The position numbers were made by a program, and so were the translations under genes. A DNA stretch of 64,000 nucleotides, from the NCBI RefSeq assembly GCF_058153355.1, contig NZ_CM177019.1; one strand, written 5' to 3'. This document shows positions 32,757-52,195 of this stretch, one piece after another. A model generated the notes under the pieces. The model saw only the letters and a list, made by a program, of their open reading frames with translations. It was not told the origin of the DNA and searched no databases. Every line of letters begins with the position of its first letter. Positions within the stretch are counted from its first letter, which is position 1.

Positions 32757-34052
<1,296 letters not shown>

Positions 34053-34152
34053 CTACATTTGCCAACTGTTTGCTACGCCTGTGTTGCCGCTTCTCTGGCC
34101 CACGGTTCGCTGTCGTTGTAGGCCCGGTAGCATGCGTACCGGGCCATGGTTG

Positions 34153-36087
34153 TTAAGACGATTTACGTACGCGCAAATACCATTCGCACAGTAAACGCAC
34201 CTGTTTACGGGTGTAGCCTTTTTCCATCATACGGTCGACAAAATCGTCGTGTTTCTTCTGCTCGTCGGTTGACGTTTTGGCGTTAAACGAAATAACTGGC
34301 AACAGCTCCTCGGTATTAGAGAACATTTTCTTCTCAATAACCGTGCGCAGTTTTTCATAGCTGGTCCAGTTCGGATTGCGTCCGCTGTTATTCGCTCTGG
34401 CGCGCAGTACGAAGTTGACAATCTCGTTGCGGAAATCTTTTGGATTACTGATCCCCGCCGGTTTCTCAATTTTCTCTAGCTCAGCGTTGAGAGATTCGCG
34501 GTCAAATAGCTGCCCGGTATCCGGGTCGCGATACTCCTGATCCTGAATCCAGAAATCTGCATACGTGACATAACGGTCAAAAATGTTTTGTCCATATTCA
34601 GAATAGGATTCAAGATACGCAGTCTGAATCTCTTTACCGATAAACTCGGCATATTTCGGAATCAAGTAACCTTTCAGGAACTCGAGATAACGCTCAGCCT
34701 GCTCCTGAGGGAACTGCTCGCGCTCGATCTGCTGTTCCAGGACGTAGAACAGATGAACAGGGTTTGCTGCCACTTCCACGTGGTCGAAGTTGAACACGCG
34801 AGAGAGGATCTTAAACGCAAAACGCGTGGACAGACCGTTCATCCCTTCATCAACGCCTGCGTAGTCTCGATATTCCTGATACGACTTGGCTTTCGGATCG
34901 GTGTCTTTCAGACTTTCGCCATCATAAACCCGCATCTTCGAATAAATGCTGGAGTTTTCCGGCTCTTTCAGACGCGAAAGAATGGAAAAACGAGACAGCG
35001 TTTCCAGCGTGCCAGGTGCGCATGGGGCGTGAGTCAGTTCACTGTGATTAAGCAATTTCTCGTAGATTTTGATCTCTTCGGAAATACGCAAGCAATATGG
35101 CACCTTCACGATATAAACACGATCGAGGAAGGCTTCGTTGTTCTTGTTATTACGGAAAGTGACCCATTCGGATTCGTTCGAATGGGCGAGAATAATCCCG
35201 TTAAACGGCAGGGCGGAGATACCTTCCGTCCCGTTGTAGTTACCTTCCTGAGTGGCGGTTAACAGGGGATGCAGCACTTTAATCGGTGCTTTAAACATCT
35301 CGACAAACTCCATGATCCCCTGGTTGGCGCGGCATAGTGCACCGGAATATCCGTAGGCGTCCGGATCGTTCTGCGCGTAGTGTTCGAGTTTACGGATATC
35401 GACTTTCCCTACCAGCGCTGAGATGTCCTGGTTGTTCTCATCGCCAGGTTCCGTTTTGGCGATAGCAATTTGTTGCAGAATTGACGGCCAGACCTTTACC
35501 ACCCGGAACTTAGTAATATCGCCACCAAATTCATGCAGGCGTTTTGCTGCCCACGGCGACATGATGGTGCCAAGATAGCGTCGAGGAATGCCATACTCTT
35601 TTTCCAGAATCTGCGCATCTTCTTGCGGATTGAAAAGACAGAACGGATGATCGTTGACCGGGCTCCGCTCACCGTTAGCGCTTAATACATAGATCGGCAC
35701 GAGCTGCATTAATGATTTCAGTCGCTCAGCAAGCGATGATTTACCCCCACCCACAGGCCCCAGCAGATACAGGATTTGTTTCTTCTCCTCCAGCCCCTGA
35801 GCCGCGTGTTTCAGATAAGAGACAATCTGTTCAATCGCGTCTTCCATGCCGTAAAACTCTTCAAAGGCCGGGTAACGTGCAATGACCCGGTTAGAAAAGA
35901 GTCGAGAAAGTCTGGGTTCCTGGGCTGTATCGACCATGACAGGCTCACCGATAGCCATCAATAGCCGCTCAGCCGCGTTGGCATAAGCACTGCGATCTTG
36001 CCGACAAGTGGTAAGAAACTCCTGCAGTGTGAACTCTTCGTCCTTGGCAGCTTCATATCGCTGGCGATAGTGATCGAATATATTCAT
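34153..36087 (-). CDS. yeaG: PrkA-family serine protein kinase
   Basis: 644-aa ORF with Walker A (GPVGGGKSS) and PrkA AAA/kinase architecture; long 435-bp upstream region consistent with a complex promoter. Confidence 0.93.
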   Translation of the reverse strand: MNIFDHYRQRYEAAKDEEFTLQEFLTTCRQDRSAYANAAERLLMAIGEPVMVDTAQEPRLSRLFSNRVIARYPAFEEFYGMEDAIEQIVSYLKHAAQGLEEKKQILYLLGPVGGGKSSLAERLKSLMQLVPIYVLSANGERSPVNDHPFCLFNPQEDAQILEKEYGIPRRYLGTIMSPWAAKRLHEFGGDITKFRVVKVWPSILQQIAIAKTEPGDENNQDISALVGKVDIRKLEHYAQNDPDAYGYSGALCRANQGIMEFVEMFKAPIKVLHPLLTATQEGNYNGTEGISALPFNGIILAHSNESEWVTFRNNKNNEAFLDRVYIVKVPYCLRISEEIKIYEKLLNHSELTHAPCAPGTLETLSRFSILSRLKEPENSSIYSKMRVYDGESLKDTDPKAKSYQEYRDYAGVDEGMNGLSTRFAFKILSRVFNFDHVEVAANPVHLFYVLEQQIEREQFPQEQAERYLEFLKGYLIPKYAEFIGKEIQTAYLESYSEYGQNIFDRYVTYADFWIQDQEYRDPDTGQLFDRESLNAELEKIEKPAGISNPKDFRNEIVNFVLRARANNSGRNPNWTSYEKLRTVIEKKMFSNTEELLPVISFNAKTSTDEQKKHDDFVDRMMEKGYTRKQVRLLCEWYLRVRKSS

Positions 36088-41296: not shown

Positions 41297-41464
41297 TTGA
41301 ATTATTCAGCTTTTTGAGTCTGTTATTAAGTGCGAACAAAAATACTTGTTTGACGTCTTGATTGTTCGATTTAGCGGTTGATAGGTTAAATGCAACACTG
41401 ACGAGTATAACCTGGCCTACGATGTCAATGAGGAAATGTAGGCCAGAGATGTATTCAACTAATA

Positions 41465-52160: not shown

Positions 52161-52195
52161 GTAGGCCAGATAAGGCGTTCACGCCGCATCTGGCA
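52161..52195. repeat. REP (repetitive extragenic palindrome) element downstream of gdhA
   Basis: GTAGGCCAGATAAGGCGTTCACGCCGCATCTGGCA matches the E. coli REP consensus family (GCCGGATGCGGCGTGAACGCCTTATCCGGCCTAC) with a G-to-A variant in each arm. Confidence 0.75.

Follow-up and report, generated by a model that had tools for sequence, protein, structure and literature searches.

The GC-rich stem-loop in the spacer between yeaG and yeaH is, as shown by its alignment with related repeats, the surviving and shortened half of a degenerate, GTAG-tagged enterobacterial REP pair, a former BIME, rather than a bespoke regulatory element. The most probable role of this remnant, in our view, is to mark the 3′ end of an mRNA of yeaG alone and to shield it by halting 3′→5′ decay, so that yeaG RNA probably outlasts and outnumbers yeaH RNA as a result. 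The hairpin, to which an earlier sequence-only reading had drawn attention, lies in the window (the whole 64-kb stretch of DNA that was analysed). The window is not from K-12: its identity is 100% with E. coli 2020CK-00188 and ~97.7% with K-12-like genomes over 351 bp, and its exact hairpin haplotype is found in 18 of 5424 E. coli genomes, marking a rare E. coli lineage. The sequence-only reading missed the REP origin of the hairpin, which as a degenerate REP and half of a decayed BIME is not specific to this locus.

Both genes are encoded on the minus strand. The upstream cistron, yeaG (34153-36087, with its stop codon at 34153-34155), encodes the 644-aa protein kinase YeaG, and the downstream cistron, yeaH (32757-34040), encodes a 427-aa protein of the YeaH/YhbH family; both identities were confirmed by BLAST against E. 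coli genomes. The gap between them, 34041-34152, is 112 bp, and the perfect 9-bp stem with a 7-nt loop that the sequence-only reading had described within it was borne out. On the plus strand, 34121-34145 reads GGCCCGGTA gcatgcg TACCGGGCC, in which GGCCCGGTA (34121-34129) and TACCGGGCC (34137-34145) are complementary at nine of nine positions with 7 nt between the arms. On the minus strand, that of the mRNA, the spacer starts with CAACCAU and continues through GGCCCGGUA-CGCAUGC-UACCGGGCC into UACAACGACAGCG. The 5′ arm therefore occupies 34145-34137, the CGCAUGC loop 34136-34130 and the 3′ arm 34129-34121, with 7 nt separating the yeaG stop codon from the start of the stem. We refer to this REP-derived stem-loop, recognised from its sequence and fold, as REP-1; it can be aligned with complete REPs that read GCCCGGTGGCGC..GCGCTTACCGGGCCTAC.

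Folding of the RNA, which had been suggested as a check, gave -18.0 kcal/mol for a 41-nt segment containing the hairpin, against -9.3 ± 2.6 kcal/mol for shuffled sequences (z = -3.4), and none of 200 shuffles folded as well. Over the spacer region as a whole (135 nt), folding does not exceed that of shuffles (z = +0.6), and the hairpin is thus the sole notable structure there. Perfect hairpins of at least 9 bp with loops of 3-10 nt give 19 hits at 12 loci in the 64-kb window, against 2.9 ± 2.2 per 64 kb in dinucleotide shuffles, a rate at which ~0.005 such hairpins would be expected by chance in a spacer of 112 bp. Membership of an Rfam RNA family was ruled out: in a permissive scan of 33500-34700 with the curated families nothing reached threshold, the best of these chance matches being RydC at 19.8 bits against 48 (E = 0.83).

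The sequence-only reading dismissed an intrinsic terminator on the coding strand, and our results agree with this. The sense strand has no U-tract after the stem (UACAACGACAGCG), the tail that directly follows it being UACAACGAC, and a terminator scan of the minus strand finds nothing. Read on the plus strand, the hairpin is followed by ATGGTTGTTA and might instead stop RNA antisense to yeaH, and a consensus scan does flag that strand as terminator-like, with 5 T in 8 nt. However, this T-run is interrupted, it overlaps the yeaG stop and last codons and is therefore constrained by coding, and K-12 has the weaker AGGGTTGTTA in its place. Moreover, the K-12 Term-seq tables, which cover three published conditions, annotate no antisense 3′ end to yeaG. 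An antisense terminator is accordingly extremely improbable.

A GTAG tetranucleotide located 5′ of a palindrome is the hallmark of enterobacterial REPs (PMC3479197; PMC3733652). Such a tag is present at the foot of REP-1 (34118-34121, plus strand; CTAC on the mRNA strand), which it both abuts and overlaps, its last G being the outermost base of the stem. The palindrome is GC-rich and 25 nt long, with its 9-bp stem and a folding energy of -18 kcal/mol; this length is within the 20-40 bp given for REPs in one survey (PMC3733652) and below the 35-40 nt given in another (PMC3479197). Its location is also that of a REP, being extragenic and just after the 3′ end of an open reading frame, 7 nt past the yeaG stop in a spacer of 112 bp. 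Homology to a dispersed, multi-copy family is seen in the outer 7 + 7 nt and the tag, which are identical to those of REPs of the form GCCCGGT..ACCGGGCCTAC. Furthermore, the window spacer is collinear with intact BIMEs at unrelated loci, namely phnD-phnE and the hpa operon (the spacer before hpaH) of E. coli and a metagenome contig, L092, that has neither yeaG nor yeaH and carries an independent BIME of the same type. This contig was the single match in a metagenome pattern scan, which was over-specific in that it allowed one loop length.

A full-length REP of this class has matches at intergenic places that number 3 in the median E. coli genome and 9 at most, and as many as 35 in one Klebsiella record. 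These fall in Escherichia, Citrobacter, Klebsiella, Salmonella and Enterobacter, a range that agrees with the ‘enterocluster 1’ reported for the GTAG-3 REPs (PMC3733652). The exact 45-nt hairpin was found at one place per E. coli genome by BLAST, which has low sensitivity for short repeats. The MG1655 record has no repeat features of any kind across 42 kb, including at the positions of canonical REPs, and the missing REP annotation at yeaG-yeaH therefore carries no information.

The partner of REP-1 can still be recognised as a remnant of a second, inverted REP (REP-2; 34085-34103, minus strand), where the window reads GTGGGCCAGAGAAG/CGGCA and Escherichia sp. L005 reads GTAGGCCGGATAAGCGAAGCGCATCCGGCA. 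When E. coli is aligned to L005 it reads CGTGGGCCAGAGAAG, then a gap of 11 nt, then CGGCA, and it is this 11-nt deletion that removes the REP-2 palindrome. L005 keeps both REPs at yeaG-yeaH, and of the loci examined there are four (L005, L007, L009 and L013) with an intact REP-2 at this site. In several Enterobacteriaceae the first REP is thus followed, beyond a short linker, by an inverted second one (GTAGGCCGGATAAGCG..CGCATCCGGCA), which constitutes a BIME. The window has no inverted second REP behind a short linker but only the remnant, and is thus an ex-BIME.

Given this ancestry, the site might serve at the level of DNA, recognised as a REP by the RAYT transposase (TnpA-REP), gyrase, IHF or Pol I. 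All of these proteins are known binding partners of REPs and BIMEs (PMC3479197), and the hairpin has both the tag, GTAG, and a foot of the REP type. REPs, however, have imperfect stems with a mismatch or bulge, correction of which abolishes binding of TnpA-REP in vitro (PMC3479197), and the stem of REP-1 is perfect. In addition the copy has been shortened to 25 nt, and the partner REP is destroyed, so that there is no BIME for the gyrase or IHF modules. We therefore judge a DNA-level role to be very unlikely. The perfect stem bears on recognition by RAYT, of which the hairpin is probably no longer a substrate, and not on descent from a REP.

That the hairpin instead acts on the mRNA is suggested by published maps of transcript 3′ ends, which had been proposed as a check and gave a positive result. 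In K-12, Term-seq lists a ‘primary’ yeaG 3′ end at MG1655 position 1868879 in stationary-phase LB at OD 2.0 (1211 reads) and at 1868880 in M63 minimal medium (762 reads) (Adams 2021; PMC7815308, supplementary file 1). No such yeaG end is listed for LB at OD 0.4 (PMC7815308), a pattern in agreement with when yeaG is expressed. We transferred the MG1655 coordinates through the yeaG stop and the alignment of the window with K-12: since the stop ends at 1868842, the stem is 1868850-1868874 and the mapped ends fall 5-6 nt past it, 1868879 being equivalent to 34116 and 1868880 to 34115 (minus strand) in the window. Thus in K-12 a steady-state 3′ end lies right after a stem that has no U-tract, as is seen for protective stem-loops. 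Stem-loops of this type protect transcripts from PNPase and RNase II, and 3′ ends of this kind are usually products of trimming (Dar & Sorek, PMC6061677). The read counts are low, and these ends could be decay intermediates of no consequence.

A step in RNA abundance accompanies the 3′ end. RNA-seq of nitrogen-starved cells gives DESeq2 baseMeans of 5327.6 for yeaG and 1791.6 for yeaH (PMC10954441, supplementary file 7), and after length normalisation, which we applied here, yeaG RNA is ~2-fold as abundant as yeaH RNA per nucleotide, a ratio that could have other causes such as the action of SdsR on yeaH. Uniform RNA-seq coverage had been named in advance as a finding that would speak against a role of the hairpin, and the coverage is not uniform. 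The proposal of the sequence-only reading that the hairpin is a processing barrier or stabiliser setting the expression of yeaG relative to that of yeaH is thus upheld in part: the 3′ end and the RNA ratio support stabilisation and differential expression, while the suggested barrier to RNase E falls away because such hairpins block 3′→5′ exonucleases (PMC6061677).

A model can be drawn from four points that are documented here or in published data: the structure of the hairpin, its descent from a REP, the K-12 3′ end and the ~2-fold RNA ratio. According to the model, the yeaGH mRNA would fold a stem-loop of about -18 kcal/mol without a U-tract. Any transcript ending beyond the stem-loop, after cleavage or termination within the spacer or yeaH, would then be trimmed by 3′→5′ exonucleases up to the stem. 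A stable yeaG-only mRNA would remain, ending 5-6 nt beyond the hairpin, and yeaG RNA would thereby outlast and exceed that of yeaH. In this model the end would be made by stalling of an exonuclease rather than by termination, the ratio of YeaG to YeaH protein would be altered, and the window strain, a loop variant, would behave in the same way as K-12.

It is also conceivable that the 3′ end arises where RNA polymerase stops at or just past the hairpin, through BIME-associated or Rho-dependent attenuation or a weak hairpin-induced stop, with no trimming involved. An end 5-6 nt past a strong stem would be compatible with such attenuation, Rho-dependent attenuation has been associated with BIMEs (Espeli 2001, as cited in PMC6061677), and the 112-nt untranslated spacer would expose the RNA to Rho. 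Nevertheless, the U-tract is absent, ends of this kind are usually made by trimming, as noted above, and the downstream sequence is not C-rich and G-poor in the manner of a rut site (8 C and 9 G in 30 nt; 14 C and 16 G in 50 nt). Furthermore, yeaG is absent from the BCM/Rho table of PMC7815308, which is an exponential-phase table taken when yeaG is barely expressed. Attenuation is on balance unlikely, and a hairpin that halts transcription itself is less likely than one that halts 3′→5′ decay.

The short distance between the stop codon and the stem raises a further possibility, that of a brake on the translation of yeaG. According to Liang 2015, as cited in PMC12306157, REPs less than 16 nt from a stop codon stall ribosomes and lower upstream translation, and those within 15 nt of the stop down-regulate the upstream gene. 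At 7 nt REP-1 falls inside this distance rule as it is given there, and in all Enterobacteriaceae orthologues the REP foot is 7-11 nt from the stop. Were the hairpin to act in this way, the terminating ribosome would have to invade the stem and would stall, tmRNA would be recruited and the level of YeaG would fall. Such an effect could operate alongside a 3′-end barrier, and would work against ‘more YeaG’. However, the hairpin is shorter than the canonical REPs of the Liang 2015 work as cited, and the mapped 3′ end is downstream of the intact hairpin, not at a site of stalled-ribosome cleavage. We regard a translation brake as possible but doubtful.

In line with protection of the yeaG 3′ end, the reading that we favour, the stem is perfect in essentially all of the 5424 E. 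coli genomes, with rare variants in 1585m1 (a G-U pair) and GPEC79 (loss of the outermost pair). K-12 has the same stem as the window, with the loop CACAUGU instead of CGCAUGC. Three loop haplotypes are found in E. coli on the mRNA strand: CGCAUGC, the window type, in 18 genomes; CACAUGC in ~38% of the sampled E. coli rows, including O157, EcN and FAH; and CACAUGU, the K-12 type, in ~57% of the sampled rows. Loop positions 2 and 7 are thus G..C in the window and A..U in K-12, and a 6-nt palindrome is kept in both. We considered whether this is a compensatory change indicative of selection and rejected it, because the unpaired intermediate CACAUGC is common.

Among ten Escherichia sequences 98.9% of stem cells are paired, and the changes are G-U wobbles or double-sided. 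Of the nine stem pairs, five are invariant, two show one-sided variation and two have changes in both partners; the covariation count in Escherichia is equalled or surpassed by 13-24 of 500 shuffles. The comparison between genera was made with a foot-anchored table, MAFFT having mis-registered the 5′ arm, and in this table the 6-bp foot is invariant across at least nine genera and only pair 7 switches, between T-A and C-G. Cross-genus covariation was set aside as evidence for RNA function, being weak and expected of any REP. REPs as a family keep their pairing regardless of any role in RNA, and pairing therefore does not distinguish a function of the RNA from an origin at the level of DNA.

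A protein-guided scan with YeaG provided 80 species, from each of which the yeaG-yeaH spacer was extracted. Spacers of Enterobacteriaceae carry a GC-rich palindrome with a GCCCGG...CCGGGC foot, 7-11 nt past the stop and followed by CTAC. Examples are those of C. youngae (GCCCGGTGGCGCATGCGCTTACCGGGC), Enterobacter MGH24 (GCCCGGTGGCGGTTAGCGCTTGCCGGGCCTAC) and isolate RIT691 (GCCCGGCGGCGCATACGCTTGCCGGGCCTAC), and similar palindromes are present in Pseudescherichia, Pluralibacter, E. asburiae and Superficieibacter. The GTAG tag is found in seven of nine orthologous palindromes from outside E. coli, and GTAG together with GCCCGG..CCGGGC has the position and orientation seen in the window in Escherichia sp., Pseudescherichia, Pluralibacter, two species of Enterobacter and RIT691. 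In 28 of the 80 species the spacer is shorter than 45 nt and the hairpin is absent, indicating that the operon works without one. Across the Gammaproteobacteria, 49 of the 52 spacers of at least 45 nt (94%) have a hairpin of -14 kcal/mol or better, against 40% in shuffles. These hairpins are unrelated in sequence between genera, and two of the spacers have ERIC-like inserts. A spacer that tolerates palindromic mobile elements fits this excess as well as recurrent selection does.

These observations bear on whether REP-1 is simply leftover selfish REP/BIME DNA with no selected role, in which case its 3′ end would be incidental and the balance between YeaG and YeaH would be set by promoters, SdsR and ribosome-binding sites. 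Loss of the partner REP by the 11-nt deletion, the absence of any hairpin from 28 of 80 species, and the unrelated palindromes or ERIC-like inserts that other genera have in the same spacer would all be consistent with a relic of this sort. The same is true of the loop, which drifts freely through three haplotypes including the common A..C intermediate, and of the rare stem variants in 1585m1 and GPEC79; invariance of the foot, for its part, corresponds to the REP consensus and need not reflect selection on RNA. Conversely, REP-1 has stayed perfect in essentially all 5424 E. coli genomes whereas REP-2 was not kept, and substitutions within the genus preserve RNA pairing, being G-U or double-sided. 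Moreover, the 3′ end and the step in RNA abundance coincide with the hairpin, and hairpins are strongly over-represented in long spacers (94% against 40% in shuffles). A neutral relic thus has a real chance of being correct, albeit a minor one.

In the remainder of the spacer, the Shine-Dalgarno sequence GGGGGG (34044-34049, minus strand), identified from sequence, is the ribosome-binding site of yeaH itself, and the G-rich run is kept in all Enterobacterales spacers. The final ~30 nt before yeaH, (A)AAGTTGGCAAATGCAG...GGGGGG, are conserved far past the range of the REP. Just 5′ of the Shine-Dalgarno sequence is the conserved AGUUGGCAAAUGUAG (34053-34067, minus strand), complementary to approximately nt 17-34 of the sRNA SdsR; pairing was computed with 26-nt windows of the spacer against the first 42 nt of SdsR. 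The SdsR-complementary segment is within the spacer and outside the hairpin, 54 nt downstream of it. RIL-seq of nitrogen-starved cells recovered SdsR:yeaG.yeaH.IGT chimeras (PMC10954441, supplement), and yeaH is named as an SdsR target in the same study (PMC10954441). A promoter scan found no internal sigma-70 promoter for yeaH within the spacer, and a sigma-54 candidate picked out by eye (TTGGCA...GCA) was rejected since its spacing is wrong.

From 5′ to 3′ on the mRNA the order of elements is therefore stop codon, 7 nt, REP hairpin, dead REP, SdsR site, Shine-Dalgarno sequence and ATG. We speculate that the hairpin and the SdsR site could together form a module for sRNA-controlled uncoupling of the two cistrons, though we think this improbable. 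In stationary phase or long nitrogen starvation, SdsR-Hfq would silence the yeaH ribosome-binding site, decay of the yeaH part would proceed 3′→5′ up to the hairpin and stop there, and the stoichiometry of YeaG to YeaH would shift rather than both proteins falling. One half of the REP pair would then have been domesticated and kept by selection while its partner decayed.

The yeaG-yeaH hairpin belongs to a textbook class, of which it is a new or hitherto unremarked member, and a public table already lists its 3′ end. With a conspicuous hairpin explained as a degenerate REP/BIME, it need not be pursued as a new riboregulator, and an unremarked entry of a published 3′-end table is now tied to a structure. 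The map of the spacer could aid study of the balance between YeaG and YeaH during nitrogen starvation. More generally, shortened relics that continue to shape mRNA ends can escape an annotation of REPs that relies on the canonical consensus.

Comparison with known systems places the hairpin most closely among REPs and the stem-loops that protect 3′ ends. It resembles an intrinsic terminator in being GC-rich and of terminator-like size and energy, but has neither a sense-strand U-tract nor an upstream A-tract. As with the stop-proximal REPs of Liang, Rudd & Deutscher 2015, so far as these are described in the citing source, the stem is 7 nt past the yeaG UAA and inside the reported range, although the hairpin is shorter than a canonical REP and an effect on YeaG is putative. 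With REPs and BIMEs (PUs; the GTAG-3 family of Di Nocera 2013 and the y/z REPs of Messing 2012) it shares the GTAG tag and the GCCCGG...CCGGGC foot, an extragenic but transcribed position a few nucleotides past a stop codon, former pairing with an inverted REP and a range confined to Escherichia, Citrobacter, Enterobacter and their relatives. It differs from them in its palindrome of 23-25 nt rather than 26-31 nt, in a stem that is perfect where REPs usually have a mismatch or G-T pairs, in a diverged centre, in being single-copy as an exact sequence and in the destruction of its partner REP. Among 3′-end protective stem-loops, where the abundance step is modest here (~2-fold) and dependence on PNPase, RNase II or Rho is putative, the yeaG-yeaH hairpin has the features of the class: it is intercistronic, stable and U-less, a 3′ end maps a few nucleotides downstream, and RNA of the upstream cistron, yeaG, exceeds that of the downstream one, yeaH. 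The closest parallel is provided by the REP stabiliser of the malE-malF type, from which the hairpin is taken to descend and as which it would still work.

The window is from an uncommon E. coli lineage. When positions 33950-34300 were compared, strain 2020CK-00188 matched at 100%, and identity of at least 99% over these 351 bp was found in only 18 of 5424 complete genomes. The sequence-only reading had assumed a K-12 origin, an assumption that we set aside, as K-12 is approximately 97.7% identical over the same interval, versus 100% for 2020CK-00188.

In E. albertii, 8 of the 25 nucleotides of the yeaG-yeaH hairpin (L004, 4443-4467) are changed relative to the E. coli sequence, a divergence far above that of the remainder of the spacer, and the CTAC tag has been replaced by TGAC. 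Folding is nevertheless retained as an 11-bp stem containing four G-U pairs, which would be C-A mismatches if read on the opposite strand. This hints at an RNA-level constraint on the sense strand, although it proves little because canonical REPs have the identical strand asymmetry. Read on the plus strand, the E. coli hairpin and its tail (34121-34155) were flagged as terminator-like, with ATGGTTGTTA following the hairpin and overlapping the stop codon and last codons of yeaG; the K-12 Term-seq tables list no antisense 3' end for yeaG.

Adjoining the Shine-Dalgarno sequence of yeaH is a conserved segment, AGUUGGCAAAUGUAG (34044-34067 with the Shine-Dalgarno region, minus strand), that is complementary to nucleotides ~17-34 of the sRNA SdsR and whose core, AAGTTGGCA, is retained across Enterobacteriaceae, Kosakonia, Serratia and Brenneria. 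An SdsR site upstream of yeaH is not new, its existence being already implied by a published study in which RIL-seq detected SdsR:yeaG.yeaH.IGT chimeras (PMC10954441) and which describes one more SdsR site, located in the 5' UTR of yeaG.

Some orthologous yeaG-yeaH spacers carry other inserts and repeats. The 202-nt spacer of Citrobacter sp. FP75 (L006, 4436-4637) and the 179-nt spacer of Serratia grimesii (L021, 4436-4614) both contain an insert, ..GTGAATCCCAGGAGCGTACATAAGTACGTGACTGGGGTGAGCG.., which resembles the ERIC consensus and may be an ERIC/IRU element, suggesting that various kinds of small repeat use the spacer as a landing pad. In the 229-nt spacer of Vibrio sp. UCD-FRSSP16_30 (L058, 4436-4664), an 8-nt unit, TAGTAATT, is repeated in tandem approximately seven times, and a distinct strong hairpin lies after the array.

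Within the window, a canonical Y-type REP, GTAGGCCAGATAAGGCGTTCACGCCGCATCTGGCA (52161-52195, plus strand), served as reference for the layout of GTAG tag plus palindrome. Two short, facing GTAG-tagged feet at 41411-41447 (..CCTGGCCTAC gatgtcaatgaggaaat GTAGGCCAGA..) lack full palindromes and may be a further decayed REP or BIME remnant. Intact BIMEs of the type seen at yeaG-yeaH, laid out as GCCCGGTGGCGCTRCGCTTACCGGGCCTAC, a linker and then GTAGGCCGGATAAGGCG..CATCCGGCA, occur in the E. coli phnD-phnE spacer (L093, 597-665), in an E. coli hpa operon spacer (L094, 600-680) and in a metagenome contig without yeaG or yeaH (L092, 64-138). All three lie a few nucleotides 3' of stop codons, and this placement in other operon spacers suggests that the BIME module recurs as an intercistronic insert.
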